From positions 15,016 through 79,015 of the forward strand of contig ONDA01000023.1 in the NCBI GenBank assembly GCA_900316475.1: a stretch of 64,000 nucleotides of DNA. The letters are read 5' to 3'. The notes beneath the pieces are model-generated. The model ran no database searches and was not told where the DNA came from. It worked only from the letters and a program-made list of their open reading frames with translations. Both the position numbers and the translations under genes were made by a program. The DNA comes from an uncultured Prevotellaceae bacterium (GTDB lineage: Bacteria > Bacteroidota > Bacteroidia > Bacteroidales > Bacteroidaceae). Positions 9,893 to 40,260 of this stretch are shown here, one piece after another. Numbering within the stretch: the first letter of the stretch is position 1; every line of letters starts with the position of its first letter.

Positions 9893-10240
9893 ATGAAAAG
9901 GATTGAAGCAATTATCCGCAAGACCAAGTTCGAGGAGGTCAAGGAGGCACTGCTCGCGTCGGACATCGACTGGTTTGAATACCATAACGTTCACGGTATC
10001 GGCCAGAGCCGACAGGAACGTATCTACCGTGGCGTGCAGTACTCTACGGATGTGATAGAGCGTGTGGCGCTGACCATCGTCTGCCGCGACGCCTTGGTGG
10101 AACCGACGGTGAAAGTGATACTCGACATGGCACACACAGGCGAGATAGGCGACGGTCGCATCTTCGTGAGCGACATGATAGACACATGGAGCATCCGCAC
10201 AGGCGAGAATGGCGACACCGTACTGAGAGATAAGAAGTAA
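9893..10240 (+). CDS. glnK: P-II nitrogen regulatory protein
   Basis: MKRIEAIIR, YRGVQY T-loop, TGEIGDGRIFVS..IRTGE; directly upstream of amtB. Confidence 0.93.
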   Translation: MKRIEAIIRKTKFEEVKEALLASDIDWFEYHNVHGIGQSRQERIYRGVQYSTDVIERVALTIVCRDALVEPTVKVILDMAHTGEIGDGRIFVSDMIDTWSIRTGENGDTVLRDKK

Positions 10241-10246
10241 GGGGTG

Positions 10247-10356
10247 CTCCCCTGCCCCCTCCAAGGAGGGGAGAGTCAAATAACACAAACACAAAAATCA
10301 CAACCCCATACCTCCGTTCGGGTTCCCCCTCCTCGGGAGGGGGTAAGGGGAGGCTT
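10247..10356. repeat. Intergenic inverted pair of the same palindromic repeat family (10247-10277, 10321-10356)
   Basis: ctcccctgccccctccaaggagggg and ccccctcctcgggagggggtaaggggaggctt. Confidence 0.85.
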
Positions 10357-10362
10357 ATACTT

Positions 10363-11616
10363 ATGAACGAAATAGGATTATCACTCGATACCGTATGGAT
10401 GCTGCTGGCAGCGATGTTAGTTTTCTGGATGCAGCCTGGCTTTGCCCTGTGTGAGGCTGGTTTTACACGAAGTAAGAATACGGTCAACATTCTGATGAAG
10501 AACTTTGTCGACTTCATGTTCGGCTCGCTCTTGTTCTTCTTCCTCGGCTTCGGCTTCATGTTCGGCAGCGAAGGTGCCGGTTTCATCGGTGCTCCCAACT
10601 GGGGCGACCTCTCATTCTACAAGGGCGACCTGCCCGTAGAGGGTTTCTTGATTTTCGAGACGGTCTTCTGCGCCACCTCTGCCACCATCGTCAGCGGAGC
10701 CATGGCTGAGCGCACGAAGTTCTCGATGTACCTGATTTACAGTGCCGTCATCTCGTTGTTTATCTATCCCATTGAAGGTCATTGGACGTGGGGCGGCGGC
10801 TGGCTCTGCAACGATGCTGCCGACGGCTTTATGATGTCTACCTTCGGCGACGTGTTTCACGACTTTGCCGGTTCGGCTGTCGTTCACTCCGTAGGTGGTG
10901 TGCTGGCACTGATTGGCGCTTTGGCACTGGGTCCCCGTGTTGGCAAGTATGCCAAGGACGGCAAGAGTCGTGCTATTCCCGGCCACAACCTGGCCATGGC
11001 CGCCCTGGGCGTGTTCATCCTCTGGTTAGGATGGTTTGGCTTCAACCCCGGTTCTCAGTTGGCTGCCAGTGGCGAGGTCAACCGTGTGGCCATCTCTCAT
11101 GTGTTCCTGACCACCAACCTTGCTGCTGTGGCAGGCGGTGTGGCCACGATGTTCCTCACCTACATCAAGTACGGCAAGCCGTCGCTCTCACTCACCCTGA
11201 ACGGCGTGTTGGCAGGTCTTGTGGGCATTACCGCCGGTTGCGACCTCGTATCGCCCCTTGGTGCCGTCGTCATCGGTCTGGTCTGCGGAACCGTTCTGGT
11301 TTACGCCATCGAGTTTATCGACCACAAGCTCCACATCGACGACCCTGTAGGTGCCAGTAGCGTACACGGCGTCTGCGGTATCCTGGGCACCCTCATGACC
11401 GGTCTGCTGTCCACATCCAACGGTGCCTTCTATGGCGGCGGTTGGGGATTCTTCGGAGCCGAGTGCTTCGGTATCCTTGTCATCGACGCCTGGGCTGCTG
11501 TCTGCGGTGTGATACTGTTCTACGGCATCAAGCACATTCACGGCTTACGCGTAGACAAGCGTATCGAGGAGGAAGGTCTCGACATCTATGAGCACGGAGA
11601 GGCGTGCTATAACTAA
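10363..11616 (+). CDS. amtB: Ammonium transporter
   Basis: DTVWMLLAAMLVFWMQPGFA, DFAGSAVVH, GWFGFN, DDPVGASSVHG. Confidence 0.97.
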   Translation: MNEIGLSLDTVWMLLAAMLVFWMQPGFALCEAGFTRSKNTVNILMKNFVDFMFGSLLFFFLGFGFMFGSEGAGFIGAPNWGDLSFYKGDLPVEGFLIFETVFCATSATIVSGAMAERTKFSMYLIYSAVISLFIYPIEGHWTWGGGWLCNDAADGFMMSTFGDVFHDFAGSAVVHSVGGVLALIGALALGPRVGKYAKDGKSRAIPGHNLAMAALGVFILWLGWFGFNPGSQLAASGEVNRVAISHVFLTTNLAAVAGGVATMFLTYIKYGKPSLSLTLNGVLAGLVGITAGCDLVSPLGAVVIGLVCGTVLVYAIEFIDHKLHIDDPVGASSVHGVCGILGTLMTGLLSTSNGAFYGGGWGFFGAECFGILVIDAWAAVCGVILFYGIKHIHGLRVDKRIEEEGLDIYEHGEACYN

Positions 11617-25053: not shown

Positions 25054-27159
25054 ATGGAACAGAAACAGTATAAACGGACGACCGTGACGTCGGCCCTGCC
25101 CTATGCCAACGGCGGGGTACATATCGGTCACCTGGCTGGCGTCTACGTGCCGGCAGATATCTATGTGCGCTATCTTCGTCTGAAGAAGCGCGAGGTTCTT
25201 TTCATCGGCGGCTCCGACGAGCATGGCGTACCCATCACCGTGCGTGCCCGCAAGGAGGGCATCACGCCGCAGGACGTTGTGGACCGCTACCACAAGATGA
25301 TTAAGGACTCGTTCGAGGAGTTCGGCATCTCGTTCGACATTTACAGCCGCACCACCTCGGAGACCCACCATAAGTTTGCTGCCGACTGGTTCCGCAAGCT
25401 CTATGACGAGGGCAAGCTCGTGGAAGAGACCACCGAGCAGCTCTACGACGAGGAAGCGAAGCAGTTTCTGGCCGACCGCTACGTCGTGGGCGAGTGCCCC
25501 CACTGCCACAGCGAAGGAGCCTACGGCGACCAGTGCGAGAAATGCGGCCGCGACCTCTCGCCCACGGAGCTGATAAACCCCCGGTCGACCATCAGCGGTT
25601 CGACACCCGTACTGAAGAAGACCAAGAACTGGTACTTGCCGCTGAACGAGTATCAGGACTGGTTGAAGCAGTGGATACTGGAGGAGCACAAGGAGTGGCG
25701 TCCGAATGTCTACGGCCAGTGCAAGTCGTGGCTCGACATGGACCTGCAGCCCCGCGCCATGACTCGCGACCTGGACTGGGGTATCCCCGTGCCCGTGGAA
25801 GGAGCCGACGGCAAGGTGCTCTACGTATGGTTCGACGCCCCCATCGGCTATGTGTCGAACACGGTAGAACTGTGTGAGAAGGAGCCAGAGAAATGGGGTG
25901 ACTGGCGCAAGTGGTGGCAGGACGAGGACACCCGTCTGGTACACTTCATCGGCAAGGACAACATCGTGTTCCACTGCATCATCTTCCCCACGATGATGAA
26001 GGCCTGGAACGACGCAAACAAGCTCTCCTCCCTCGGAGGGACCGGGAGAGGCTTCATCATGCCCGACAACGTGCCCGCCAACGAGTTCCTGAACCTGGAG
26101 AACGACAAGATTTCGACCTCAAGGAACTGGGCCGTCTGGCTGCACGAATACCTGGAGGACATGCCCGGCAAGCAGGACGTACTGCGCTACGTGCTGACCG
26201 CCAATGCCCCGGAAACGAAGGACAACAACTTCACGTGGAAGGATTTCCAAGACCGCAACAACAACGAGCTGGTGGCCGTCTATGGCAATTTTGTCAACCG
26301 TGCCCTGCAGCTGACGAAGAAATACTGGAACGGCGTCGTTCCCGCCTGCGGCGAACTGACCGACGTTGACCGTCAAGCCCTGGAGGAGTTCAAGGACGTG
26401 AAGGCCAAGGTGGAAAACCTGCTGGAGCAGTTCAAGTTCCGCGACGCACAGTTTGAGGCCATGAACCTGGCCCGCATCGGCAACAAGTACATCACCGACT
26501 GCGAGCCGTGGAAAGTGTGGAAGACCGACCCGAAGCGCTGCAAAACCATCCTGAACATCTGTCTGCAACTGACGGCCAACCTCGCTATTGCCTTCGAGCC
26601 GTTCCTGCCGTTCTCGAGTAAAAAACTCCGCGAGATGCTTAACATCGACAGCTTTGAGTGGGAGCAGCTGGGCAGCACCGACCTGTTGCAGGCTGGCCAC
26701 CAGTTAGGCGAGCCGCAGCTGCTGTTCGAGAAGATTGAGGACGACGTCATACAGAAGCAGCTCGACAAGCTGGAAGCCACCAAGAAAGCCAATGAGGCTG
26801 CCGCCTTCAAGCCTGCTGACATCAAGGAAACGGTTAGCTTCGAGGACTTTGAGAAGCTCGACATCCGTGTGGGCTTGGTGAAGGACTGCCAAAAGGTGAA
26901 GAAGTCGAAGAAGCTCCTGCAGTTCACCATCGATGACGGTTCAGGCACCGACCGCACCATCTGCTCGGGCATCGCCCAGTTCTACGACGACCCGTCGGCG
27001 CTCGTGGGCAAGCGCATCCTCTTCGTGGCCAACTTCGCGCCGCGCACGATGATGGGCATCGAGAGCCAGGGCATGATTCTCTCGGCCGTCGATGCCGACG
27101 AGAGCCTGAGCGTAGTCACCACGACGAAAGACGTCAAGCCCGGCTGTCAGGTGGGATGA
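25054..27159 (+). CDS. metG: Methionyl-tRNA synthetase with C-terminal tRNA-binding domain
   Basis: [38 protein letters not shown]. Confidence 0.98.
26020..26054. repeat. Palindromic repeat copy in frame in metG
   Basis: aagctctcctccctcggagggaccgggagaggctt; peptide [12 protein letters not shown]. Confidence 0.75.
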
Positions 27160-27199
27160 TCCGTTCTGACGGACAAGCGCTCTGAAAAGTCAGAAACGG

Positions 27200-28660
27200 A
27201 TGGACACATTGAAGGAGAAGACCGCTAAAGGTCTGTTCTGGGGTGGACTAAGCAACGTGTTGCAGCAGATGCTGAACCTTGTGTTTGGCATCTTTCTGGC
27301 ACGGTTGCTGAGCACTGAGGATTATGGTCTGGTGGGTATGCTCACCATCTTCTCCCTTGTGGCAAACTCATTGCAGGAGGGCGGGTTCATCTCAGCTCTG
27401 AACAGGCGGAAGGAGGCGAGTCACAAGGATTATAACGCCGTGTTCTGGACTTGCACGCTGACGAGCCTTCTCCTTTATGTCATTTTCGCTCTCTGTACCC
27501 CCCTTATAGCGCGCTTCTATCACGAGCCACGGCTTGTGCCCTTGGCGCGCTATATCTTTCTTGGCTTTTTCATCTCAAGTCTTGGCATTGCGCCACGGGC
27601 CATCCTCTTCCGGAACATGAAGGTTCGCGAGACGGCCATCGTGAACTTCGTCGGTCTTCTGCTGTCGGGAATCGTGGGGGTGTGTATGGCCGCAGCGGAC
27701 TTTGCCTACTGGGGCATAGCGACCCAGTCTCTTGTATATGTAGGCGTCACGACGGGTCTTAACTTCTGGTATGCCCGCTGGCATCCCACGCTGCCTGTGG
27801 ATTTCTCTCCGGTACGTGAGATGATAGGCTTCAGCAGCAAGCTGATAGTCACCAGTCTGGTGGTGATATTCAACACGAATATGTTTTCCGTCATTCTGGG
27901 ACGTAAATTCCCGGCCAGTGTGGTTGGCAATTACACACAAGCCAACAAGTGGAACAATATGGGGTGGTTGCTCATCAACAACATGCTCAGCGGCATAGCT
28001 CAGCCAGTACTGGCTAAAACCGACGACGAACCCGAACGCCAGAAACGTATCTTCAGGAAACTGCTGCGCTTTACCGCCTTTGTCAGTTTTCCCGCTATGC
28101 TTGGCCTGGCACTGGTGTCACACGAGTTTATTGTCATCCTGCTTGGCGAGAAGTGGCTTGACAGTGCCCTCATCCTTCAGTGGCTGTGCGTGATGGGTGC
28201 TTTCTACCCGCTATCCAACCTGTTTTCCTATTACATGGTCAGCCATGGCCAGTCTTCACGCTTCATGTGGTGTCACACCGCTTTAGGAGCGGTTCAGTTG
28301 GCGGCGGTCTTCGTCTCGGCGCCCTACGGGATGGGGATGATGATTAAGGTGTATGTAGGAATAGCTGTCGGCTGGTTTTGGGTGTGGTATCGGCTGTCGC
28401 GGAACTGGATAGGTCTTACGCTATATGAAGTGGTGAAGGACATTTCGCCCTATTTCTTCATTACTGTAGCATTGGTGTTTTCGGCGCAAGTCATTACGGA
28501 GCCCATAGCGAGCATTTACATCAGGTTTGCTGCCAAGGTGCTGTTTGTGGCATCGCTCTACGTTCTGGTACTGTGGCTCTTAGGTTCGGCCATATTCCGT
28601 GAGAGTCTCGATTTTTTCGAAAGCAAAGTAAAATTTCCTTTTAAAAAGCACGCACAATGA
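27200..28660 (+). CDS. Polysaccharide flippase (Wzx/PST family)
   Basis: LKEKTAKGLFWGG, LARLLSTEDYGL, multiple TM segments. Confidence 0.9.
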   Translation: MDTLKEKTAKGLFWGGLSNVLQQMLNLVFGIFLARLLSTEDYGLVGMLTIFSLVANSLQEGGFISALNRRKEASHKDYNAVFWTCTLTSLLLYVIFALCTPLIARFYHEPRLVPLARYIFLGFFISSLGIAPRAILFRNMKVRETAIVNFVGLLLSGIVGVCMAAADFAYWGIATQSLVYVGVTTGLNFWYARWHPTLPVDFSPVREMIGFSSKLIVTSLVVIFNTNMFSVILGRKFPASVVGNYTQANKWNNMGWLLINNMLSGIAQPVLAKTDDEPERQKRIFRKLLRFTAFVSFPAMLGLALVSHEFIVILLGEKWLDSALILQWLCVMGAFYPLSNLFSYYMVSHGQSSRFMWCHTALGAVQLAAVFVSAPYGMGMMIKVYVGIAVGWFWVWYRLSRNWIGLTLYEVVKDISPYFFITVALVFSAQVITEPIASIYIRFAAKVLFVASLYVLVLWLLGSAIFRESLDFFESKVKFPFKKHAQ

Positions 28661-29649
28661 GTTTGAATTTCTACCATAAGGCCCTAACGGCAGGACGTCG
28701 TATTTATACTAAATACTGGTACCCGAAGACATCGTTGCTCACCTTTGAGTCAGACCCTGACAGGGCTGGAGACAGAATCTACGAACTGCTGGCAAGTGGC
28801 AAACCTTGCATGATAGCCAGATACGGTGCCAACGAACTGACGACCGTGTTCAACTATTTGGGCATTACGGAACATCGGGGAGATGCATGGGGGTATATGA
28901 CGCGAAAGAATGGTCCCTGGTGGTGGAACAAGCACATATTGATGCAGATGAAGCATGTAGCAGGTTTCTTCCCCATAGACAATGAACATCTATACCGCTT
29001 TAGCGAGATGATGCTTGAAGACTCGCAGCAGGTAGACATCCTGGGAAGCTGGCTGAATGAAGAGATTGCCGTCAGCCATCTATTAAAGAATGCCTACAAG
29101 GTAGCCCTCCCCTGTTTAGAACCCTGGCTTGCCAAAAAGCCTTGGAGCAGGGCTTTGGAAGGCAGGAAGGTGCTTGTCGTTCATCCTTTTGATGAACTGA
29201 TACGCCGGCAATATGAAAAGCGGCGGTTGTTGTTCTCCGACAATGTGCTTCCTACTTTTAAAGAGCTCCATGTCATCAAAGCCGTACAAAGCTATGGGAA
29301 TAATAGTGAATCATGTGGATATGACGACTGGTTTTCTGCCTTACATTGGATGGAGCAAGAAATGGACAAGAGCGAGTACGACGTCTGCATATTAGGATGC
29401 GGAGCCTATGGTTTTCCGTTAGCAGCCTATGCCAAGCGCCAAGGTAAGCAGGCCATCCATCTTGGTGGCGTCAGCCAGTTGCTGTTTGGCATCACAGGCC
29501 ATCGCTGGCTTAATCCGATGCACGGTGTAGAGCGATGGGGACTGCCCAAGGGCTTCTACGTCAACCTGATGAACGAGCATTGGATAAGACCTGACGCCAC
29601 CACCAAACCCAAGGACTCCGACAAGGTGGAGGGGAACTGCTATTGGTGA
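28657..29649 (+). CDS. Conserved polysaccharide-locus protein, possibly a glycosyltransferase
   Basis: ILGCGAYGFPLAAYAKRQGKQAIHLGG motif; coupled to wzx. Confidence 0.6.
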   Translation: MSLNFYHKALTAGRRIYTKYWYPKTSLLTFESDPDRAGDRIYELLASGKPCMIARYGANELTTVFNYLGITEHRGDAWGYMTRKNGPWWWNKHILMQMKHVAGFFPIDNEHLYRFSEMMLEDSQQVDILGSWLNEEIAVSHLLKNAYKVALPCLEPWLAKKPWSRALEGRKVLVVHPFDELIRRQYEKRRLLFSDNVLPTFKELHVIKAVQSYGNNSESCGYDDWFSALHWMEQEMDKSEYDVCILGCGAYGFPLAAYAKRQGKQAIHLGGVSQLLFGITGHRWLNPMHGVERWGLPKGFYVNLMNEHWIRPDATTKPKDSDKVEGNCYW

Positions 29650-29656
29650 GGGCTGC

Positions 29657-30751
29657 TTATCCCCTTCCGAAGAGCCACTTCTTGAAGAACGGACTGACGC
29701 GCAGGATGTTCGACGCTATGATGCTGAAGCCGATGACGATGAGGGCTATCAGTAGTGAGAGTGTAGTGTCAATGGCGAAATTGTGGCGATACTGGTTGAA
29801 GTAGGTGCCGATGGTAGGCAGGTTGGGCATGAAAAGGAAGTGGATGAGATAGATGTCGAGCGTGCGTCGGCCGATATACTGCAAGCTGGCGCCGATGACC
29901 GTCCGCTGCGTAAAGTACTGGTGGTAGTGGCGGAAGTACATAAAGACTATCGTCAACAGCGAGATGCGTGCCAACGTCAGTGGTATGACGGCCCAGGCAG
30001 CGTGTAGCCAATGCCATTTCTGTGAGTCGAGCCAAGCATACATAGCCAGCATGACAAGTGCAGGATAGAACCACTTGGAGTCCATGAGGCGTTGAGCCTG
30101 GTCCCAGTAGCGGCGTACCACGTTGCCATAGACGAAATAAGGGAAGTACATGAAGAGCTGCCCGAAGCTGCTGTAGTTCATAAACTCGTTGCCCGGTCCC
30201 TTTCTTCCCTGTGCCCAGCTGAAGTATTGAGGCTGGTAGCAGGTGTCGTAGCAGACCAGCGAGATGACGAAGAGCACGGCTATGGGCAGCCACGAAGGCA
30301 TCTTCGGGAAATGCTTCTTCAGTAACTCCTCAACGTAGCAGAACAAGTAGTAGACGATGAACATATAAAGCAGCACGATGGTGAACCAGTAGCCGCCCTT
30401 CGTCGGCAGTGCTAACCATTTCAGTGTCGTGGGCAGAAAATAGCCGCCCAGGATAGCTACGCCAAAGAAGAAGAAAACGACGGTTGGTATGGTCTGCACC
30501 CTGATTTTCTTCAGCAGCAGACTTTTGAGCGTGCCCATATTCCACACCAGCCCTGCCTTGTAAGCCAGGAAACCACTGACGAAGAAGAACAGCGGCATAC
30601 GGAAAAGGACGAGGAAGCGCATTGAAGACGACAAATTGTGCTGCTCGGAGAATCCGATAAGTGCTACGTGATAGGCTACAACAAGAATCATCGTGAACCC
30701 TCTGAGAGCGTCCAACCATTCCAACCGGGGCTTCTTTGCTACTGTTTCCAT
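29657..30751 (-). CDS. Acyltransferase family 3 (OafA-like) membrane protein
   Basis: RLEWLDALRG, FRMPLFFFVSG, YWF, LDIYLIH; start reassigned to 30751. Confidence 0.9.
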   Translation of the reverse strand: METVAKKPRLEWLDALRGFTMILVVAYHVALIGFSEQHNLSSSMRFLVLFRMPLFFFVSGFLAYKAGLVWNMGTLKSLLLKKIRVQTIPTVVFFFFGVAILGGYFLPTTLKWLALPTKGGYWFTIVLLYMFIVYYLFCYVEELLKKHFPKMPSWLPIAVLFVISLVCYDTCYQPQYFSWAQGRKGPGNEFMNYSSFGQLFMYFPYFVYGNVVRRYWDQAQRLMDSKWFYPALVMLAMYAWLDSQKWHWLHAAWAVIPLTLARISLLTIVFMYFRHYHQYFTQRTVIGASLQYIGRRTLDIYLIHFLFMPNLPTIGTYFNQYRHNFAIDTTLSLLIALIVIGFSIIASNILRVSPFFKKWLFGRG

Positions 30752-30784
30752 ACGTATGTGTTCTGTTTTTAAGTTTTTTTGGTG

Positions 30785-30823
30785 CAAAGATACAAAATAT
30801 TTCATAATAAATTCATACCTTTG
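30785..30823. promoter_or_regulatory. Overlapping divergent -7 promoter boxes (30785-30792 minus; 30816-30823 plus)
   Basis: TATCTTTG and TACCTTTG both match TAnnTTTG. Confidence 0.65.
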
Positions 30824-30845
30824 CAGCAAAAATGCGAAAAAGCTC

Positions 30846-32012
30846 ATGGAGGATTTGAGAATAGCGCTTCTGAAGCAGGATGTCTATCAGGATTTGTACG
30901 TTTGTCCTGTCACCGAGAAATCGGCAGCCAACGTACTGTTCAGCTCAATGATGCGGGTGGGACCTATTGGTCTGGTGAGCGACCTGCGAGCCGACTTCTA
31001 TATTGTCAAGGAAGAGCCAGCCCCCGAAACGCAGATTTACAAAAAGGTAATCCCTCATATCGTCTGGATGCTGCCGCTGCTGAAGACGAAGCCGTTGAAC
31101 CAGGTGCCGGGCTATGAAAAATGGCAGTTGGAGACCGACCATGCCAATGGCGACTTCTCCGTCGACTGCCATGACGTAGACTGGGGGCAGTATGATGTCG
31201 TCATTTCCGTCAATGTCTGTCTGCCTACGGAGGTGGTGAAGCAGTACCCTAAGACCCTCTTTGCCTATATGATTGGTGAGGCAAATATGGCTATGGGCAA
31301 GGCACGCTTCGGCTACGACATCACGCTGAACCAAATGGCACGCGGTATAGTGGCCAACGGCTTAGGTGAGGTGGACTTCCCCTATACCTTCGTGGGGCGT
31401 GACACCCTGGAGCGCATCATTCATTCCAAGGTAAGACGCGCTTCGAAGCGCGATGGCGTGTTTGTGGAAATCAACTCCGTGGCCAAGGACCGTGATAAGG
31501 TGCCGCCTCAGTTCCTGCCTATTCAGGAAGCAGGCTACGCCATCCACCTGCACAAGCCGAAAATCAGTGACAACCTGATGACCATCTACGACTCAAAATA
31601 CTTCGTAAAGATTGGCGGACGCCCCATCCGTGGCAACTCCGTGGCAGAGGCCGTGTCGTTAGGTACATTGGCCATTATGAACCGCGACGAGGTGACCCAC
31701 GGCGAACTGATTATCGACGAGTGTAATGTCGGTACGTCAGAGGAAGTGCTTCAGCTGATGCGCCGCCTCGATGCCGACGACGCCCTTTACGAGCGTCTGT
31801 TGGAGAAGCAGAGGCAGGCGCTCCACCACCTGTTCTTCGAGACGCCCGTTGAGTCGCTGCGCAACTGTCTCAACATCAAGCGGCAGATGAAGCCACGGCG
31901 CTACAGCCTATGGGATAAACTTGGGGACCTCCTCTATCTGAAAGGCTGCGACGTCTACAACTTTCTGAAGGAGAAGAAGCGCTGGTTAAAAAGCTTGAAG
32001 AAGAACAAATAA
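30846..32012 (+). CDS. Hypothetical protein heading the phosphonate operon
   Basis: 388-aa ORF behind a -7 box; no family recognised; start reassigned to MEDLRI. Confidence 0.6.
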
Positions 32013-32031
32013 CAGTAAGAACAGAATATAT

Positions 32032-33339
32032 ATGGAAAAAGAAAAGATAGTTTACGTCGGCATGAGTGCCGACATCATACACCCGGGACATCTCAACATC
32101 CTGCATGAAGCCCAGAAATACGGACGCGTCATCGTGGGCGTACTGACCGACGCGGCCATTGCCAGCTACAAGCGGCTGCCCTACTTGAACTACGAACAGC
32201 GCTCGCTGATAGTCAGTGACCTGAAAGGCGTTTCAGAGGTGATACCCCAGACGACGCTTGACTACCGCCCGAATCTGGAGAAAATCAAACCAGACTACGT
32301 GGTTCACGGCGACGACTGGAAACAGGGTGTACAGGCAAAGACCCGTCAGCAGATTATCGAGAAGCTGGCGGAATGGGGCGGCAAGGTCATAGACGTGCCC
32401 TACACCAAAGGTATATCCTCGACGATGCTGAATGAGCGTCTGAAGGAAATCGGCACGACGCCCGACGTCCGTCTGAAGCGTCTCCGCCGGCTCATTGGTG
32501 CCAAGAAGATTGTGCGATTCTGCGAGTCGCACAGCGGACTGACAGGTCTGATTATCGAGAACACATCGGTGATGATTAACAATATGAAACACGAGTTCGA
32601 CGGTATGTGGGCCAGTTCGCTAACCGACTCGACGTCAAAAGGCAAGCCCGACATCGAGGCCGTTGACCTGACGACACGACTGCACGACCTGAACGACGCT
32701 TTGGAGGTGACCACCAAGCCCGTCATCTTCGACGGCGATACGGGGGGCAAGCCAGAACATCTGGCCTTTTCCGTGCGCACGCTGGAACGACTGGGCATCT
32801 CGGCGATTATCATCGAGGACAAAGTAGGACTGAAGAAGAACTCTCTCTTCGGCACGGAGGTGAAACAGGAACAAGACACCATAGAGGGTTTCTGCGAGAA
32901 AATACGTTCAGGCAAACGGGCACAGATAACCAGCGACTTCATGCTGATAGCCCGTATTGAGAGCCTCATTGCCGGCAAGGGCATTGACGATGCTATGGAG
33001 CGCGCCTTGGCCTATATCGAGGCAGGGGCCGACGGCATCATGATTCACAGCAAAGAACAGACGGGCGAGGACATCAAGGAGTTCTGCCAGCGATTGCGAG
33101 CTAAGAACGCCTCTGTGCCCATTGTGGTAGTGCCTACGACTTACAACCAGATTACCGAGGACGAACTGGCTTCTTGGGGCGTCAACGTCGTCATCTATGC
33201 CAACCACTTGCTGCGCGCTGCCTACCCGGCAATGGTACAGTGTGCCAAGTCTATTCTGGCCAACGGCCGCTCATACGAAGCCAACAGTCTATGTATGCCC
33301 ATCAAGGAAATCTTAGAACTTATTCCCGGCACGAAATGA
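32032..33339 (+). CDS. aepX: Phosphoenolpyruvate mutase with N-terminal cytidylyltransferase domain
   Basis: [10 protein letters not shown] matches the PEP mutase EDKxxxxxNS signature; N-term DIIHPGH (HxGH) TagD-like domain. Confidence 0.96.
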
Positions 33340-34463
33340 TACGTCCTTCATTCTTCTACGATACCCTGGCATCCAACGGCATAAACTTCTATGCCGGCGT
33401 GCCCGACTCCCTGTTGAAGCAACTCTGTGCCTACATCACAGACCATGCCGATGCCACGCATAACATTATCGCTGCCAACGAGGGCGGTGCACTGGGTGTG
33501 GCCGCAGGGCACTATCTGGCCACGCGCCAGATTCCCGTCGTCTATATGCAGAACTCAGGCGAGGGAAACATCATTAACCCGCTGGCGTCGCTGACCGACA
33601 AGGATGTGTACAACATTCCCGTCCTGCTGCTGATAGGCTGGCGCGGACGTCCCGGCGTACACGACGAGCCGCAGCACGTGAAACAGGGGAAGGTGACGCT
33701 GACACTGCTGGAGACGATGGGCGTCAGGTATGAGGTGCTTAGCAAGGACGAGGTTCAGGCGGCAGCGCAGGTCAAGGCGGCCGTCGACTATATGCACGAG
33801 ACAGGTGAGGTTTTTGCGCTGGTCGTTGAAAAGGACACGTTCGATAGCTATGCGCTACAGAATGTCGTGATTAACTACTTGACGATGACACGTGAAGACG
33901 CCATTCAGACCGTGGCGGCGGCATTAGCCCCACGGGACGTGATAGTGTCAACAACGGGCATGATCAGCCGCGAACTCTTCGAATACCGTACGGCGAAAGG
34001 CGAAGGTCACGAGCGCGACTTCCTGACAGTTGGCTCCATGGGGCACGCCAGTCAGATAGCATTGGGTATCGCTATGGAGAAGCCAGAGCGCCGCGTTTGG
34101 TGCTTCGACGGCGACGGTGCTGCCATTATGCACATGGGCGGTTTGGCTATCGTGGCCAGCAAGCGCCCTCGGAATTATGTTCACGTCGTCTTTAATAATG
34201 GTGCTCACGACTCTGTTGGCGGCCAGCCAACGGTAGGTCTCGACATCGACTTGCCCGCCATAGCCAAGGCCGTGGGCTATGCCCATGCCTATAGCGTCAG
34301 TACACTGGAGGAACTGACGGCACGGTTGGACGACGTAAAGCAACAGGCAGGGCCGATGCTGCTACAGGTGTGTGTGAAGAAGGGCAACCGCAAGGATTTG
34401 GGCCGTCCCACGACCACGCCTGTACAGAACAAGGAAGCCCTGATGGATTTTTTGGAGGACTGA
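33336..34463 (+). CDS. aepY: Phosphonopyruvate decarboxylase
   Basis: [47 protein letters not shown]; ATGA overlap with aepX. Confidence 0.95.
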
Positions 34464-34464
34464 T

Positions 34465-35571
34465 ATGGCACAACAGATTTTGAACGGTATAGAGCACCTG
34501 AACGGCGTAGTGGCAGACAGCAGGAAGGTTATGCTGGTTTGCGACGGCTCATTCCCGTTCCTCAGTATTAAAACGGCCGTCGAGAGCATAGGCGTGCCTT
34601 TTGTCAAGTTCGACCAGTTTACTCCCAATCCGCTGTACGAGGACGTCTGTAAGGGTGTTGAACTGTTCAATCAAGAGCAGTGTGACACCATTCTCGCCGT
34701 TGGAGGCGGAAGTACTATCGACGTGGCAAAGTGTATCAAGCTGTATTGCCGGATGCCGGCAGACAAGCTTTTCCTGGAACAAGAATACCACGACACGGGC
34801 GTGCAGCTCATTGCTATTCCTACCACAGCCGGCACGGGCAGTGAGTCGACCCGCTTCGCCGTAATATATTATGGTGGAAAGAAACAAAGTGTGACGCATG
34901 AGAGCATCATACCCAACGTGGCCATCTTGGAACCACAGGTGCTGAAGACGCTGCCGGTCTATCAGAAAAAGTGTACGATGATGGATGCCTTATGTCAAGG
35001 CATAGAGTCGTGGTGGTCGGTGAACAGTACGGACGAAAGCAGATGTCTTTCGGAAAAAGCCGTGACAACCATTATGCACTGGTGGCGCGACTACATCTTC
35101 GATAATTCCGATGAGGCTGCCCGGCAAGTGATGGCCGCAGCCAACCTGGCCGGCCGTGCCATCTGTATCACGCAGACGACGGCGCCCCACGCTTTCAGCT
35201 ATAAGATTACGTCGCTCTACAAATTGCCACACGGCCATGCCGTAGCAGTCTGTTTACCAGAAATCTGGCAGTATATGCAGAGTCATCCCGACCGTTGTAT
35301 CGACCGTCGGGGAACCGGCTATCTACAGGCTACTTTCAAAGAAATAGCACAGGCTATGCAGGTAGCCGACGTTCCGTCGGCCATCGGCTGTTTCCGCGAA
35401 ATGATGAAAGTGCTGGGCCTGCAGAATCCTGTGTCGTCGGAAAAGCGGGATGAAGAATTACACACGCTGAGCACTTCCGTCAACCCTATCCGTCTGCGTA
35501 ACAACCCCGTAGAACTCGACGCAGAGGCCATCATGGGATTGTACCATACCATCATTGACAAACCGCTATGA
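34465..35571 (+). CDS. Iron-containing alcohol dehydrogenase, probable phosphonoacetaldehyde reductase
   Basis: AVGGGSTIDVAK, IPTTAGTGSE, PHAFSY, PHGHAVA; directly after aepY. Confidence 0.85.
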   Translation: MAQQILNGIEHLNGVVADSRKVMLVCDGSFPFLSIKTAVESIGVPFVKFDQFTPNPLYEDVCKGVELFNQEQCDTILAVGGGSTIDVAKCIKLYCRMPADKLFLEQEYHDTGVQLIAIPTTAGTGSESTRFAVIYYGGKKQSVTHESIIPNVAILEPQVLKTLPVYQKKCTMMDALCQGIESWWSVNSTDESRCLSEKAVTTIMHWWRDYIFDNSDEAARQVMAAANLAGRAICITQTTAPHAFSYKITSLYKLPHGHAVAVCLPEIWQYMQSHPDRCIDRRGTGYLQATFKEIAQAMQVADVPSAIGCFREMMKVLGLQNPVSSEKRDEELHTLSTSVNPIRLRNNPVELDAEAIMGLYHTIIDKPL

Positions 35572-36506
35572 ACAGTATTAAAGAGAAGATAACCATGCCG
35601 CTTGACGATAGCTTCCTTCAGGAAGAGGTCAGGTGCGAGTATACAGTGTCGTCAAGGCAGAAACGGATATGGGCCATTGAGATGGATCTGCTTTACCAGT
35701 TGCTGGCGGTATGCAAGAAGCACGACATCAAGGTCTTTGCCTTTGCCGGTACATTATTGGGAGCCGTCAGGCACCGTGGCTTTATTCCCTGGGATGACGA
35801 CATTGACGTGTGTATGACGCGGCCGGAGTTTGAGAAGCTTCGTGCCATAGCCGCCACAGAGTTCCGCCATCCGTATTTCCTACAGACGGATTTGTCTGAC
35901 AGACGCTACTTCTGTCAGGGCTATGCCCGCTTGCGAAACTCGTTGACAACGGGGCACATCCTGGCTCACGAGTCGCCAGACTACAATCACGGCATTTATA
36001 TTGACGTCTTTGTGATGGACGGCTATGTGGATGGCGCAGCGTTCAAGCGCCAGATGCTGGTTAAGGATACCCTCGTCAGTCTGGTGTCACTATACCGCCC
36101 TAAACAGCAGAACAATCTGTTGCGGCGCCTGTATCGTAGCGTGATGGCCCATACGTTCTGCAAACTGGTACCCTACGAGACCGTGGTAGGCTGGTATGAC
36201 AAGAACCTCAGGAAGTATAGTGCTACCGCTAAGCGGCTGACGATTCTGACACATCCTATGTATTTCATCACACGCTACTGGTGTGAGGCTGCCGATTTGG
36301 ACGAGACGGTCTATCTGCCTTTCGAGAACATGACGGTTCCTGTTCCGGCAAACTACGACAAGGTGCTGAGAAACATATATGGCGACTATATGGCCTTCCC
36401 GCCTGTTGAGGAGCGGGGCAAATGGCATTCCAATGACATTTACTTCGACCCCGATATGGCTTATACCGATTATTTCAAACAGAAAAAGGATTCATGGCGG
36501 AAGTGA
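35568..36506 (+). CDS. LicD family phosphotransferase
   Basis: GTLLGAVRHRGFIPWDDDIDV, IYIDVF, YGDYM. Confidence 0.92.
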   Translation: MNSIKEKITMPLDDSFLQEEVRCEYTVSSRQKRIWAIEMDLLYQLLAVCKKHDIKVFAFAGTLLGAVRHRGFIPWDDDIDVCMTRPEFEKLRAIAATEFRHPYFLQTDLSDRRYFCQGYARLRNSLTTGHILAHESPDYNHGIYIDVFVMDGYVDGAAFKRQMLVKDTLVSLVSLYRPKQQNNLLRRLYRSVMAHTFCKLVPYETVVGWYDKNLRKYSATAKRLTILTHPMYFITRYWCEAADLDETVYLPFENMTVPVPANYDKVLRNIYGDYMAFPPVEERGKWHSNDIYFDPDMAYTDYFKQKKDSWRK

Positions 36507-37330
36507 CGAAGACAGCCGTCTTACTGACGGTGTTCAACAGGAGAGAGATGACGCTTGTCAGCCTGCGCACATTGTATGCAGCCATCGACAGGTTAGGTCC
36601 GGGCTATGCGTTTGATGTCTATCTGGTAGACGACGGTTCTACGGACGGGACGTCTGAAAGCGTGGGTAGTGAGTTCCCGGCTGTCAGACTGTTCAAGGGT
36701 GATGGCGGTCTCTATTGGGGACATGGTATGCTGATGGCGTGGGAGAAGGCTGTTGAGTCGGGTGTCGGCTACGACTATTTCCTCTGGTATAATGATGATT
36801 CCGAGTTGTACCCCGATGCCTTACAGACGCTATTCAAGTCGATGGATGACAATGGCGAACGCTGCGTCGTGACGGGCGCCTTCTGTGACCATCAGGGTTG
36901 CTGTTCATACGGCGGCGGGGATGAAAACAACAAGGGGTTAGTCCCGGATGGCAGTTATCAGAAGGTGGTGACGATGAACGGCAACTTGGTGCTTATCCCC
37001 TATCAGGTCTACAAGGCCGTAGGAATGATTGACCGAGGGTATCGTCATGCGTTCGGTGACCATGATTACGGTTACAGAGTCCAGAAGCAGGGCTTCAGTG
37101 TGCTGTTGACGCCTCGCTACGTGGGCGTGGTTGACAATCATACCGAAACACCTTACTCTGGTATTGCGAGTTTTAAGAAGCGGTGGAAGAACTTGCATAG
37201 CCCGAAGAACTCGCCCCGCTATGGTTTCCGCTATCTGCGGACTTACAAAGGTTGGAACAGCGCTTTACGCTATTGGATCAGTTCCTACCTATACACATTT
37301 TTCCCCTCTCTTGCACCAAAGCGAAACTAA
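36494..37330 (+). CDS. Glycosyltransferase family 2
   Basis: LLTVFNR, VDDGSTDGT, LWYNDD, GDHDYG. Confidence 0.88.
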   Translation: MAEVTKTAVLLTVFNRREMTLVSLRTLYAAIDRLGPGYAFDVYLVDDGSTDGTSESVGSEFPAVRLFKGDGGLYWGHGMLMAWEKAVESGVGYDYFLWYNDDSELYPDALQTLFKSMDDNGERCVVTGAFCDHQGCCSYGGGDENNKGLVPDGSYQKVVTMNGNLVLIPYQVYKAVGMIDRGYRHAFGDHDYGYRVQKQGFSVLLTPRYVGVVDNHTETPYSGIASFKKRWKNLHSPKNSPRYGFRYLRTYKGWNSALRYWISSYLYTFFPSLAPKRN

Positions 37331-37343
37331 TAAAAAAGGAAAC

Positions 37344-38366
37344 ATGAAAAAAGCAGCTCAAGTTGATATCGCAGTATTGATGTTGTTCTTCACCCGTTCT
37401 GATACGTTTCAGCAGGTATTCGACGAAGTAAGGAAGGCGCGCCCCTCGCGGTTGTTCCTCTTTCAGGACGGTCCCCGTGGCGAGCGCGATATGGCGGGTA
37501 TAGAAGCCTGCCGACAGATTGCCAGCGACGAGAACATCGACTGGGAGTGTGAGGTACACCGAAACTATCAGGAGCGTAACTTAGGCTGTATGATAGCTGG
37601 ATATACGTCCCATCAGTGGGCTTTCTCGCTGGCCGACAAGTGTATGGTGCTTGAGGACGACGTGGTACCGTCGCAGTCGTTCTTCCCGTTCTGTAAGGAG
37701 ATGCTCGACCGCTACGAGCACGACGAGCGCATCTCGATGGTGGCGGGCTTCAACGTCGACGAGGTGACGCCCGACATTCCCTACGACTACTTCTTCACTT
37801 CTGCCTTCAGCATCTGGGGCTGGGCGTCGTGGCGCAGGGTTGTTAAACAATGGGATAAGGATTACACATTCCTTGACGATGCGTTCAGTATGCGACAGCT
37901 TGAGGCGCTCATCAAGCAGCGCGGCTATAGGAAGAGCTTTGTCAAAATGTGTCGCGACCATCGCGAGACAGGACACCCTCAATTCGAGAGCGTCTTCTGG
38001 GCGACGATGCTGTTCAATTCGGCCATGGCCATTGTGCCCTGTAAGAATATGATTAATAATGTAGGTGCCTCGGAGGACTCTACACACTATTCGGCCTTCC
38101 GCACCTTACCCCGTCGCCTAAAGCAGCTGTTTACTATGAAACGCTATGACATCGATTTCCCTCTGCGTCATCCACGGTACGTGATTGAGGAAGTGGGCTA
38201 TTGGAAGCGCTTCTATAAGGCTCAGGGCTGGGGCCATCCACTGACGAAGGTCGGACGCTCCTTCGAAGAACTGGTTCTGAATATCCGCTACGGCAACTGG
38301 TCGTTCATCATGAATTCTGTCAAGCGGCGTGTCCGAAAATGGAGGGGCGTGGAGAAGTTTGGATAA
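37344..38366 (+). CDS. GT-A fold glycosyltransferase-like protein
   Basis: LFQDGPR, NLGC, MVLEDDVVP, WGWASW; start reassigned to 37344. Confidence 0.7.
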   Translation: MKKAAQVDIAVLMLFFTRSDTFQQVFDEVRKARPSRLFLFQDGPRGERDMAGIEACRQIASDENIDWECEVHRNYQERNLGCMIAGYTSHQWAFSLADKCMVLEDDVVPSQSFFPFCKEMLDRYEHDERISMVAGFNVDEVTPDIPYDYFFTSAFSIWGWASWRRVVKQWDKDYTFLDDAFSMRQLEALIKQRGYRKSFVKMCRDHRETGHPQFESVFWATMLFNSAMAIVPCKNMINNVGASEDSTHYSAFRTLPRRLKQLFTMKRYDIDFPLRHPRYVIEEVGYWKRFYKAQGWGHPLTKVGRSFEELVLNIRYGNWSFIMNSVKRRVRKWRGVEKFG

Positions 38367-38405
38367 GTTTTGTTGATGGGAAATCTCAGGACGGTGTGTG
38401 CTTCC

Positions 38406-39455
38406 TCACGAAAGATGTTGTAAGAGTTCCTTCAATTCTTCAACGCTTTTCCCCAATTTTGCTGAAATAGCCTCTAACGACAATCCATTATCCTGCATTA
38501 TCTGAATAGAATAGCCTAATAGTTTTTGCTGTTCACTCAGCTGGACCTGCTGTTCACTCAGCTGGACCTGCTGTTCACTCAGCTGGACCTGCTGTTCACT
38601 CAGTTGGACTTGCTGTTCACTCAGCTGGACCTGCTGTTCACTCAGTTGGACTTGCTGTTCACTCAGCTGGACCTGCTGTTCAGCGAGTTTGCGGTCACGA
38701 AGCATAATTTCCGTGTCACGTTTCTCAATGGCTGCGAAATATTCGTCTTCGACATTCATATCCTGACGTACGTCGGCATCAGTAGAAGCCATTAACAGGC
38801 GGTGGACGATGTGTTTCATATCGGCATCGTCCTCGTACAGACTATCATCAAGTGTCAGTACTTGCTGACTTTCCTTGCTCTTATGCGTCTGGTCAAAGAT
38901 GCTCAGAACTTTGTCCAACCGAGTATTCACCTGACCGTGCAGACGGGGAATCTGCACAATGATACTGTCATGCGTTAGGCTGTCTACAAACGGATTTGGA
39001 ATTCCTTTGGTGACGGGATGTCCTTCATAGTCATAGGCTTTATGCTGTACGTACAACACTGGTTCCTCAATATCTCCTACTCTGTGACCTAACAGGTATA
39101 TTGCCACCATAGGCAAGGCAAAACTATCCCGATTTGCTCCTACGATGTTTTTGGGATTCTGATACTGCGTACCCAAATATTGGCGGAAGCGAAGCGTTTC
39201 TGTCTCAAGCCACGTCTTCTGCAGTTCCACAAGAATCAGTTGCTCTGAACCGTCACTGTTTCGTACGGTGGCTCCAAAGTCAATGCGGAACACGGAAAGC
39301 GTGTCACGTTGCGTATTTGAGTATTCGTGAGGGCGAATTTCAACACGAACGATGTCCATCTTCAAAAGAGCCGACAAGATTGTGCGGGCAATGCGCTCGT
39401 CCTCCATGAGATACTTGAATACGATGTCGTAAATCGGGTTCGCTATATTAACCAT
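38406..39455 (-). CDS. Rpn/PD-(D/E)XK-like protein with C-terminal heptad repeat
   Basis: IANPIYDIVFKYLM, RIDF..ILVELQK, RFRQYLG; start reassigned to 39455. Confidence 0.65.
   Translation of the reverse strand: MVNIANPIYDIVFKYLMEDERIARTILSALLKMDIVRVEIRPHEYSNTQRDTLSVFRIDFGATVRNSDGSEQLILVELQKTWLETETLRFRQYLGTQYQNPKNIVGANRDSFALPMVAIYLLGHRVGDIEEPVLYVQHKAYDYEGHPVTKGIPNPFVDSLTHDSIIVQIPRLHGQVNTRLDKVLSIFDQTHKSKESQQVLTLDDSLYEDDADMKHIVHRLLMASTDADVRQDMNVEDEYFAAIEKRDTEIMLRDRKLAEQQVQLSEQQVQLSEQQVQLSEQQVQLSEQQVQLSEQQVQLSEQQVQLSEQQKLLGYSIQIMQDNGLSLEAISAKLGKSVEELKELLQHLS
38527..38686. repeat. 21-bp VNTR (7 full units plus a partial) encoding LSEQQVQ
   Basis: tgctgttcactcagctggacc units with few variants. 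Confidence 0.95.
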
Positions 39456-39600
39456 ATAAAAACGTTTTTTCTTTTGGGCAAAGATAGGAAGAAAAATTGA
39501 AATGGCCAAGAAAGCGACGTATTAAAATGTTAAATAATCGTAAATATGGAACTATTGGCTCTAAGTATGTCTTCTAAAAGAAGAAAAAGCAGTACCTTTG

Positions 39601-39798
39601 CAGTCCGATTATTGGGGAGAGACTTAGAATCCCCGGAAATGCTGTGTGAATAGCGGCGTCTTTGGCCGGACGAAGCGGTTCGTGAATCAGTGTTTCAGCA
39701 GACGTTAGACTTGCACCTGGGCGGCTAACCCCAGATGTGAGTTCTGTGTGTGCAAATAATTTAATGTATAACTGTTTTTTAGTAAACCAAAAAGAGAA
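39601..39798 (+). promoter_or_regulatory. Long structured 5' leader of rplM
   Basis: -7 box 39593-39600 followed by about 200 nt with several hairpins (ggggag/tcccc, ctggg/cccag). Confidence 0.45.
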
Positions 39799-40260
39799 AT
39801 GAACACTTTAAGTTACAAGACGCTTTCCGTCAACAAGGAAACCGCACAGAAAGAGTGGGTCGTCATCGACGCTACCGACCAGGTGGTGGGTCGTCTCTGC
39901 TCAAAGGTAGCCAAGCTGCTCCGCGGAAAGTACAAGCCTACTTTCACACCGCACGTTGACTGCGGTGACAACGTTATCCTTATCAATGCCGATAAGGTGG
40001 TATTCACTGGTAAGAAGGAGACCGACAAGGTCTACACGCGCTATACGGGCTATCCCGGTGGCCAGCGCTTCAACACGCCAGCCCAGCTGCGCCAGCGCAA
40101 GGACGGTATCGACAAGATTCTGCGTCACGCTGTGAAGGGTATGCTGCCGAAGGGTCCCCTCGGCCGCTCGCTCATGACCAACCTCTTCATCTACGAGGGT
40201 ACAGAGCATCCCCATGAGGCCCAGAAGCCCAAGGCAATTGATATTAACCAGTATAAATAA
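39799..40260 (+). CDS. rplM: 50S ribosomal protein L13
   Basis: WVVIDA..VVGRL, KPTFTPHVDCGD, GMLPKGPLGR. Confidence 0.98.
   Translation: MNTLSYKTLSVNKETAQKEWVVIDATDQVVGRLCSKVAKLLRGKYKPTFTPHVDCGDNVILINADKVVFTGKKETDKVYTRYTGYPGGQRFNTPAQLRQRKDGIDKILRHAVKGMLPKGPLGRSLMTNLFIYEGTEHPHEAQKPKAIDINQYK

Follow-up and report, generated by a model that had tools for sequence, protein, structure and literature searches.

How does a bacterium that builds a phosphonate activate it and bring it onto its surface? The question is raised by the window analysed here, a stretch of 64,000 nucleotides from an uncultured Prevotellaceae bacterium, in which a LicD-family gene closes a short series of phosphonate genes. 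We put at roughly three in four the probability that this is an intact, compact gene set that makes 2-hydroxyethylphosphonate (HEP), uses CTP to activate it and then links it to a sugar polymer on the cell surface. The locus is an ordinary example of a common and already described kind, and the proposal has also appeared in the literature before.

Organisation of the locus

The initial annotation had placed a self-contained activation and transfer route at positions 32032–36506, and the open reading frames (ORFs) sit at exactly those positions, as four tightly packed and intact genes (Table 1). ATGA overlaps join ppm to ppd and adh to licD (4 bp in the latter case), a gap of 1 nt separates ppd from adh, and licD overlaps the following GT2 gene by 13 bp; the arrangement is best explained as a six-gene, translationally coupled operon at 32032–38366, part of a small glycan locus of the Wzx type that is flanked by metG and rplM. 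The two genes between the fusion and licD, encoding the phosphonopyruvate decarboxylase (Ppd) and an Fe-type alcohol dehydrogenase (ADH), had gone unnamed in that annotation.

Upstream, the possible GT-D-like gene overlaps wzx by 4 bp. Two soluble proteins provide leads only: the Atlas neighbours of the 30846..32012 product are hypothetical proteins, some with Glycos_transf_1, and those of the 37344..38366 product are called ‘hemolysin activation protein’, a few of them with GT2 or GNT-I. A scan of 26900–40000 for sigma-70 promoters and terminators, using a model ill-suited to Bacteroidota promoters, gave a number of sites not above that of shuffled sequence.

Table 1. Features of the phosphonate and glycan locus, in positions of the window
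Feature	Position	Strand	Basis
Wzx-type polysaccharide flippase	27200..28660	+	PF13440 Polysacc_synt_3, E 1e-70; seven TM-like segments
Possible GT-D-like glycosyltransferase (weak)	28657..29649	+	PF22882, 25.4 bits, just below cut-off 27
Acyltransferase_3 membrane protein, probably a glycan O-acyltransferase	29657..30847	-	PF01757, E 4e-23; seven TM-like segments
Soluble protein, family unassigned; GT-B-like glycosyltransferase as a lead only	30846..32012	+	No Pfam or NCBIfam match; start set at Met52 of a long ORF, our choice
Cytidylyltransferase domain of fusion (aa 1–140), Fom1/HEP type	32032..32451	+	PF01467
PEP mutase domain of fusion (aa 151–435)	32482..33339	+	TIGR02320
Phosphonopyruvate decarboxylase (Ppd)	33336..34463	+	TIGR03297
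Fe/Zn-type group III alcohol dehydrogenase, predicted phosphonoacetaldehyde reductase (PhpC/FomC type)	34465..35571	+	PF00465, PF25137
LicD-family transferase, predicted to move hydroxyethylphosphonyl from CMP-HEP to sugar	35568..36506	+	PF04991
GT2 glycosyltransferase	36494..37330	+	PF00535, E 7.5e-12
Soluble protein, family unassigned; GT-A-like fold as a lead only	37344..38366	+	No Pfam match; GT25 E 0.057

A proposed route from phosphoenolpyruvate to HEP

The PEP mutase domain of the fusion (32032–33339; 435 aa) would convert phosphoenolpyruvate to phosphonopyruvate. PF13714 (PEP_mutase) matches residues 151–409 (E 1e-55), the equivalog model TIGR02320 gives 410 bits (cut-off 320), a Ppm motif of the EDKxxxxxNS type lies at residues 262–271, and the domain matches the PEP mutases 5unc (E 1e-44) and 1m1b (E 5e-39) in the PDB. 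Ppd, which covers its entire TIGR03297 profile (1–360 of 360; 514 bits versus a cut-off of 312), would then turn phosphonopyruvate into phosphonoacetaldehyde, drawing the unfavourable mutase equilibrium forward, and the alcohol dehydrogenase is predicted to yield HEP from phosphonoacetaldehyde.

Among the domain and family assignments of this route, that of the alcohol dehydrogenase is the only one that does not pass its curated cut-off; its best NCBIfam match is the phosphonate-linked TIGR03405 at 146 bits, far below the cut-off of 424. Published PhpC-type enzymes are highly divergent (PMC13576164). In about 45 related loci the position after Ppd is occupied by an ADH homologue, the homologues being drawn from single-sequence phmmer matches with Ppd ORFs left out; an iterated ADH HMM was dropped because it drew in Ppd ORFs, probably via fused Ppd–ADH proteins. 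An Fe-ADH following Ppd, together with a genome that holds no AEP transaminase (TIGR03301) above cut-off, supports HEP rather than AEP as the predicted product of the locus.

A Fom1-like cytidylyltransferase

The N-terminal 140 or so residues of the fusion had been read as a TagD-like cytidylyltransferase, the locus having no separate nucleotidyltransferase, and both observations hold. PF01467 (CTP_transf_like) spans residues 12–135 (E 9e-15), TagD (1coz) matches residues 5–137 (E 2e-10), and none of the ORFs in 27200–39509 carries a separate nucleotidyltransferase domain. HPGH at residues 17–20 and YTKGISST at 124–131 correspond to the HxGH and (R/Y)TxGISST motifs. The match to the cytidylyltransferase of Fom1 (5x3d) reaches E 6e-58 over residues 5–140, with 84 of 136 aligned positions identical (about 62%, counted by us); residues of the HEP clade common to both proteins are S12, H20, Y46, L76, D77, V90, V91, Q101 and W115, and by eye 17 of 18 clade-discriminating positions agree. 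Fom1 makes CMP-HEP, according to Cho 2017 as cited in PMC6697681. The domain is a close relative of Fom1, the one enzyme shown to make CMP-HEP, and its assignment as a HEP-type cytidylyltransferase is supported; like Fom1, it would convert HEP and CTP into CMP-HEP and pyrophosphate. That the fused domain makes CMP-HEP, as first proposed, thus draws support from kinship with Fom1 and from the residues of the ADH-linked clade.

In a tree of the fused domain, a single branch with 100% support separates two clades. The ADH-linked (HEP) clade, to which this fusion and Fom1 belong, shows HPGH in 47 of 47 members and a PntC-like gene nearby in one of the 47, and the AEPT-linked (AEP) clade shows HPG(L/I) in 22 of 22, with a PntC-like gene near 19 of these; since the two clades parted only once in evolution, the ‘perfect’ residue correlation is one observation, not 69. 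The fused domain of the AEP clade appears to have lost a catalytic histidine.

LicD and the recurring cassette

LicD matches PF04991 over its full length (132 bits, profile 1–227 of 227). In its motif GTLLGAVRHRGFIPWDDDID all eight residues that are invariant among 33 phosphonate-linked LicDs are present, namely G61, L64, G65, R68, W75, D76, D78 and D80 of the conserved G.LLG..R ... WDDD.D pattern. The AF2 model has a pLDDT of 93 and its best PDB matches in Foldseek are FKRP chains (E 1e-6, probability 1.0); a sequence search of the PDB returned no match at E 0.01, and the kinship with FKRP is one of fold only. LicD has no TM segment, and this soluble protein would pass the hydroxyethylphosphonyl group to a sugar hydroxyl with release of CMP. 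The probable acceptor is a lipid-linked oligosaccharide assembled by the neighbouring glycosyltransferases, with Wzx flipping the product outward; it is the neighbouring genes that point to the adjacent glycan.

The comparison set comprises 80 related loci from many phyla, found with an 11-sequence alignment (A2), a set of 36 diverse fusions (A1) being too divergent; for the diverse representatives P0128 and P0171 the contigs are too short for neighbours to show. Throughout the set a transferase of the LicD, TagF-like or CDP-alcohol type usually comes after the fusion–decarboxylase–dehydrogenase core, and the donors of these families are all CMP-linked. Where HEP-type loci have room on both sides (n=35), LicD directly adjoins the core in 14 and lies within 8 kb in 18; a TagF-like PF04464 protein takes the place of LicD in at least 11 HEP-type loci, and a CDP-alcohol phosphatidyltransferase does so in one. 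The order fusion–Ppd–ADH–LicD is found again in Bacteroidales, Spirochaetia and Alteromonadaceae. A relative whose fusion is 86% identical holds the stand-alone cassette LicD–ADH–fusion–Ppd between msrA/VanY and rpsP, and in a rumen Treponema relative the only LicD of the genome likewise lies within a phosphonate locus.

The initial annotation had LicD attach the HEP group to the glycan. This reading is supported by the gene being the sole licD of its genome, by its overlap with adh and by the absent choline pathway, and is further backed by the recurring gene order in other groups. Within the family, Ppm is found in 9 of 150 genomes and LicD in 95 of 150, so that LicD is common where phosphonate genes are absent and family membership alone is uninformative on the donor; in the family sample, LicD lies within 7 kb of ppm in 6 of 10 Ppm-positive genomes. 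Subtypes of LicD tracking the head group were considered and dropped, HEP- and AEP-linked copies being mixed in the LicD tree. In the literature searched we found no report of a LicD enzyme transferring a phosphonate, in vitro reports included.

Comparison with known systems

The closest parallel is the bifunctional cytidylyltransferase–PEP mutase Fom1 of Streptomyces wedmorensis, which has the same PF01467-then-Ppm architecture, HPGH, YT.GISST and HEP-clade residues, and whose partner enzymes Fom2 and FomC have their counterparts here in Ppd and the Fe-ADH. According to Rice et al. 2019 (PMC6697681), 23.6% of all PEP mutases are such fusions. In the fosfomycin pathway Fom3 methylates CMP-HEP, and the CMP is taken off at a later step; this locus is without such genes and has in their place a LicD, glycosyltransferases and a flippase, so that its CMP ester would be a transfer donor.

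The Pnt clusters of Treponema denticola, Atopobium rimae and Olsenella uli (Rice et al. 2019, PMC6697681) share the logic of phosphonate, CMP conjugate and surface LicD-like phosphotransferases. Their head group is AEP, made via a transaminase and activated by the characterised PntC (LicC/PF12804 fold), whereas here HEP would be made via an ADH and the sole activating domain is the fused PF01467, with no PF12804 domain; the locus would work in a Pnt-like way with a different fold and head group. The Lic pathway of Streptococcus pneumoniae and Haemophilus influenzae (LicA, LicB, LicC, LicD) employs the same PF04991 transferase family and a CMP-linked donor. In contrast to it, no choline kinase (LicA) was found in the present genome, the locus is without a transporter or LicC-type gene, and the head group would have a C–P bond made de novo from PEP.

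The likeness to CDP-glycerol chemistry proposed at the outset also fits, since TagF-like enzymes (PF04464) replace LicD in sister HEP loci and the fused domain is itself a member of the TagD family. Unlike in TagD/TagF teichoic-acid synthesis, the substrate would be a phosphonate rather than a phosphate ester, and the transferase is LicD, not TagF. Human FKRP, a CDP-ribitol ribitol-phosphate transferase with structures solved with CMP and with CDP-ribitol (6kak, 6kal, 6kam), shares the DxD-type nucleotidyltransferase-fold catalytic domain of the LicD model and releases CMP; identity to LicD is only 12–15%, and FKRP has an extra stem domain and a different donor and acceptor. A chemical precedent for HEP esterified to polysaccharide is given by the HEP-bearing exopolysaccharides of Stackebrandtia nassauensis and Glycomyces (Yu et al. 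2014, as cited in PMC8942020 and PMC13576164); these are actinomycetes, unlike the host here, and are likened by their chemistry, not their gene clusters.

Alternative acceptors, donors and substrates

With the chemistry unchanged, the acceptor may be a glycolipid or other lipid rather than the polysaccharide of the locus, an unlikely reading but the one that survives best. Mf1, a relative of LicD, adds phosphocholine to glucosyl-diacylglycerol, and HEP could similarly be placed on a membrane glycolipid; the best NCBIfam match of the LicD is indeed the Mf1 diacylglycerol cholinephosphotransferase (80 bits, below cut-off). Close relatives hold the four genes outside any glycan locus, a CDP-alcohol phosphatidyltransferase follows the ADH in one sister locus (L052), and neither a Wzy polymerase nor an initiating transferase is recognisable in the locus of the window. 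Against a lipid acceptor, licD overlaps the GT2 gene, shares an operon with GT-like genes and adjoins wzx and the acyltransferase, and its product is without a membrane segment.

We consider it improbable that LicD stands beside the phosphonate genes by chance and uses CDP-choline, CDP-ribitol or CDP-glycerol, with HEP remaining soluble or being attached by another enzyme, although LicD genes are common in Prevotellaceae genomes without Ppm, roughly one HEP-type locus in three has no LicD within 8 kb, and the LicD tree is unsorted by head group. The genome, 91% complete, contains one PEP mutase and one LicD, the latter tied to the ADH gene by their 4-bp overlap. It gave no match to choline kinase (PF01633) and no TagD-type enzyme, the sole other PF01467 protein being NadD on another contig, and none of its nine PF12804 matches lies on this contig. 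The adjacency of LicD to the core recurs in several phyla and in the stand-alone cassette, and the rumen Treponema relative repeats the pattern of a single LicD.

More doubtful still is that the fused domain activates AEP, glycerol-3-phosphate or another substrate, or is inactive, with HEP activated elsewhere. The substrate choice of this family cannot be read with certainty from sequence and the sister clade seems to have lost its histidine; here, however, HPGH is kept, the clade-discriminating positions are as in Fom1 with one exception, and the locus has neither an AEP transaminase nor another candidate activating enzyme. Finally, CMP-HEP is a pathway intermediate in Streptomyces (PMC6697681, PMC8158854) and the three-gene core equals Fom1–Fom2–FomC, but that it serves here as a transient handle for a small-molecule phosphonate and not as a donor for surface decoration is scarcely credible, as the genes around the core encode a flippase, glycosyltransferases and LicD, and no radical-SAM/B12 methyltransferase (Fom3-type), epoxidase or CMP-hydrolase domain occurs in the ORFs of 27200–39509.

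Biological significance

Phosphonate decorations alter the appearance of a bacterial surface to phages, hosts and phosphatases, and they tie up phosphorus in a form accessible to few organisms. Only two actinomycetes have yielded HEP from polysaccharide (PMC8942020), yet pathways dedicated to HEP degradation are widespread, rumen Fibrobacter being one example, and the authors of that work ask where HEP originates (PMC13576164). Gut and rumen metagenomes contain hundreds of near-identical copies of the cassette, which has relatives in at least 598 species genomes; this abundance makes it a plausible source of HEP and a convenient four-gene test system.

On balance we lean towards a broader proposal, in which LicD-family enzymes are phosphonyl transferases of bacterial surfaces, this LicD converts CMP-HEP directly into a sugar-O-P(C) ester, and the very common cassettes of rumen Prevotella, Bacteroidales and Treponema are a major biological source of free and polymer-bound HEP. 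As a corollary, the fused PF01467 domain would be active only where HxGH is intact, as here and in Fom1, and the HxG(L/I) clade would need PntC as a separate enzyme. If the proposal is true, these cassettes would supply HEP to the other rumen and environmental bacteria that have the means to degrade it.

Gene content of the locus

The finding is real, and the mechanism proposed in the initial annotation, in which the fused cytidylyltransferase (CyTase) domain would activate 2-hydroxyethylphosphonate (HEP) and LicD would transfer it, is the best-supported one. Four ORFs lie on one strand, almost without spacing, across 32032–36506, and the gene content first described for this interval proved correct in all points: ORFs, domains, motifs and equivalog scores agree. 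The PEP mutase (Ppm) and phosphonopyruvate decarboxylase (Ppd) score above the NCBI equivalog cut-offs (TIGR02320, 410 bits versus 320; TIGR03297, 514 versus 312), and the fusion translation contains HPGH at residues 17–20, YTKGISST at residues 124–131 and a ten-residue PEP-mutase motif.

Features of the phosphonate locus (window coordinates)
Feature	Position	Strand	Details
CyTase–PEP mutase fusion, 435 aa	32032–33339	+	PF01467 CTP_transf_like aa 12–135; PF13714 PEP_mutase aa 151–409
Phosphonopyruvate decarboxylase	33336–34463	+	TIGR03297; start codon overlaps the Ppm stop (ATGA)
Group III (Fe-type) alcohol dehydrogenase (ADH)	34465–35571	+	
LicD, full length	35568–36506	+	4-bp overlap with ADH gene
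GT2 gene	36494–37330	+	operon continues past licD; 13-bp overlap with licD
Soluble protein, no family assigned	37344–38366	+	operon member after GT2 gene
367-aa ORF	38406–39509	-	between glycan operon and rplM; no Pfam/NCBIfam match, no membrane segment

Upstream of the core, a Wzx flippase and a weak GT-D-like protein are encoded, followed by an opposite-strand acyltransferase and a second soluble protein without a family; for both family-less soluble proteins, protein-atlas neighbours offer only a lead towards a glycosyltransferase-like identity. The locus is bordered by metG on one side and, on the other, by a minus-strand ORF followed by rplM/rpsI.

The 91%-complete genome contains one PEP mutase and one LicD in total. 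No AEP transaminase was found in it above cut-off, so that HEP, rather than AEP, is the predicted small-molecule product, and synthesis of HEP by the locus is very probable. Choline kinase was not found in this genome either, which leaves LicD without a phosphocholine pathway to serve.

The fused domain as probable activating enzyme

The initial annotation held that the locus has no separate nucleotidyltransferase, and such a domain is indeed absent from every other ORF in 27200–39509. The only further PF01467 protein in the genome is NadD, encoded beside guanylate kinase on a different contig, and none of the nine genome-wide matches to PF12804, the family of the AEP-activating enzyme PntC, is on the contig of the window (genome 91% complete).

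Relatives of the fusion allow this trait to be placed in context. ORFs were called in 80 loci and labelled by searches seeded with the window proteins, with recurrent neighbours named by Pfam. In transaminase-type loci, the gene of approximately 240 codons beside the transaminase encodes a PF12804 PntC-like enzyme, in some loci fused to the transaminase. Within 8 kb of the core, 19/22 of these loci have a PntC-like gene, versus 1/47 ADH-type loci; the absence of a separate nucleotidyltransferase is thus a regular trait of HEP-type loci, where the fused domain, with its intact HxGH, is predicted to be the sole activating enzyme.

When 47 ADH-linked fusions were compared with 22 transaminase-linked ones, all 23 strongly discriminating alignment columns fell within residues 1–140 and none in the mutase domain. 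The N-terminal domain of the window protein has a mean identity of 72% to the ADH-linked set and 52% to the transaminase-linked set, and its mutase domain is about equally near to both (71% and 73%, respectively).

Discriminating positions in the fused domain
Position	ADH-linked	Transaminase-linked
12	S	I, T or V
20	H (HPGH)	L or I (HPG(L/I))
46	Y	H
76	L	W
77	D	S or T
101	Q	not conserved (D, E, L and others)
115	W	not conserved (mostly I or L)

In the N-domain tree a single branch with 100% support parts the two types, and the mutase-domain tree needs three changes between them; the correlation between residues and locus type therefore counts as a single old divergence rather than as repeated, independent evidence. 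With HPG(L/I), the transaminase loci have lost the latter of the two histidines in the catalytic motif, and the fused domain of this clade may be inactive or repurposed. The loci named for it are L022, L026, L027, L035, L036, L044, L045, L048, L051, L058, L059, L064, L065, L071, L078 and L080, with the fusion gene near 10001–11300 in most.

Two further arrangements were seen. In locus L087 (3093–9203) the fusion, 54% identical, has isoleucine at position 20, and the genes after it encode Ppd, an SDR/epimerase, a PF12804 nucleotidyltransferase, a saccharopine-dehydrogenase-like protein and a metallophosphatase; this locus looks like a third branch. An otherwise HEP-type locus of Stutzerimonas stutzeri (L066:13581–14051) has an extra stand-alone PF01467 cytidylyltransferase of 157 aa after the ADH.

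The closest solved relative of the fused domain is the CyTase of Streptomyces wedmorensis Fom1 (PDB 5x3d; E 6e-58, residues 5–140), with 84/136 positions identical by our own count; TagD, ECT and CCT are far weaker matches. Of 18 discriminating positions checked by eye, Fom1 agrees with the ADH clade at 17. Positions 46 and 48 of the fusion align with TagD K44 and K46, and position 76 with TagD W74, residues which we take to line the TagD phospho-alcohol pocket; that the discriminating positions 46 and 76 would fall at this pocket is a lead, not a result. Fom1 uses its fused domain to convert CTP and HEP into CMP-HEP (Cho 2017, as cited in PMC6697681), and we put the probability that the window's fused domain forms CMP-HEP at about 0.85.

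LicD and the acceptor

The 33 phosphonate-linked LicDs share eight invariant residues, including the WDDD.D acidic cluster, and the window LicD has all eight. An AlphaFold model of it, built on the alignment of these 33 proteins, has a pLDDT of 93; in the PDB it is matched best by FKRP chains, some of them in complexes with CMP or CDP-ribitol (E 1e-6).

Of about 45 loci with a fusion–Ppd–ADH core, 35 have flanks of 1.5 kb or more on either side; in these 35, LicD is adjacent in 14 and within 8 kb in 18. For the fusion–Ppd–AEP transaminase core (22 loci, 20 with flanks of that length) the numbers are 10 and 14. The exact order fusion–Ppd–ADH–LicD occurs, within the 80 loci, in Bacteroidales, one Spirochaetia genome and five Alteromonadaceae. 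LicD is probably the transferase.

In many HEP-type loci a TagF-like PF04464 protein directly follows the ADH, replacing LicD. After the fusion–Ppd–ADH core, TagF-like proteins were seen in at least 11 loci and a CDP-alcohol phosphatidyltransferase in one (named loci: L021, L025, L029, L031, L033, L034, L042, L049; L006, L020, L023, L043, L074, L083; L052). The latter directly follows the ADH in Desulfuromusa kysingii (L052:13611–14363) and suggests a phosphonolipid. LicD, TagF-like and CDP-alcohol phosphatidyltransferase families all use CMP-linked donors. In a Fibrobacter sp. MAG (L037), LicD paralogues, five in all, flank a fusion–Ppd pair on both sides, with neither ADH nor transaminase near the pair.

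The description of the route as self-contained is supported by a relative whose fusion is 86% identical (L001:7925–12473; also L002 and L003), where a LicD–ADH–fusion–Ppd cassette lies between msrA/VanY and rpsP. The four genes stand alone, outside any glycan locus, in an order unlike that of the window.

Within the set, the window LicD has its nearest neighbour in a rumen Treponema, yet shares only 43% identity with it, although the fusions encoded in these two loci share 76%, and HEP- and AEP-linked copies are intermixed in the LicD tree; from this we infer that LicD divergence may track the acceptor rather than the head group. Neither a Wzy polymerase nor an initiating transferase was found among the locus ORFs, so the acceptor glycan is not definable from the locus alone; the locus's own glycan is slightly favoured over a glycolipid. 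In 31P NMR, the signals of phosphonates lie far downfield of those of phosphate esters.

Precedent and distribution

The finding belongs to a known kind: the fusion, the activation with CMP and the connection to LicD have all been published. PF01467–Ppm fusions make up 23.6% of all non-redundant PEP mutases and LicD-like phosphotransferases are present in AEP neighbourhoods (Rice et al. 2019, PMC6697681), and HEP-type neighbourhoods are 8.5% of the total (Li and Horsman 2022, PMC8942020), so that the architecture and its logic were already described. For one step, the transfer of a phosphonate by a LicD enzyme, no demonstration was found in the literature searched.

A protein search with the fusion returned 8000 scored relatives, among which the 120 listed are 84–100% identical and mostly from metagenomes; a 50%-identity library gave 618 clusters with E 1e-30 or better, and a one-genome-per-species scan found a relative in at least 598 genomes. 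The best 80 loci of these (63–86% identity) come from Bacteroidota, Spirochaetota, Fibrobacter, Elusimicrobia, Cloacimonadota, Gammaproteobacteria and several archaea. In the family sample, LicD is present in 10/10 Ppm-positive genomes, within 7 kb of ppm in 6/10, and in most Ppm-negative genomes too. PEP mutase is patchy in the window's own family (9/150 other genomes) and absent from the six sampled genomes of the same genus, which fits an accessory, horizontally moving module. The closest LicD in the set belongs to a rumen Treponema, and the module appears to have been gained by horizontal transfer inside the rumen community.
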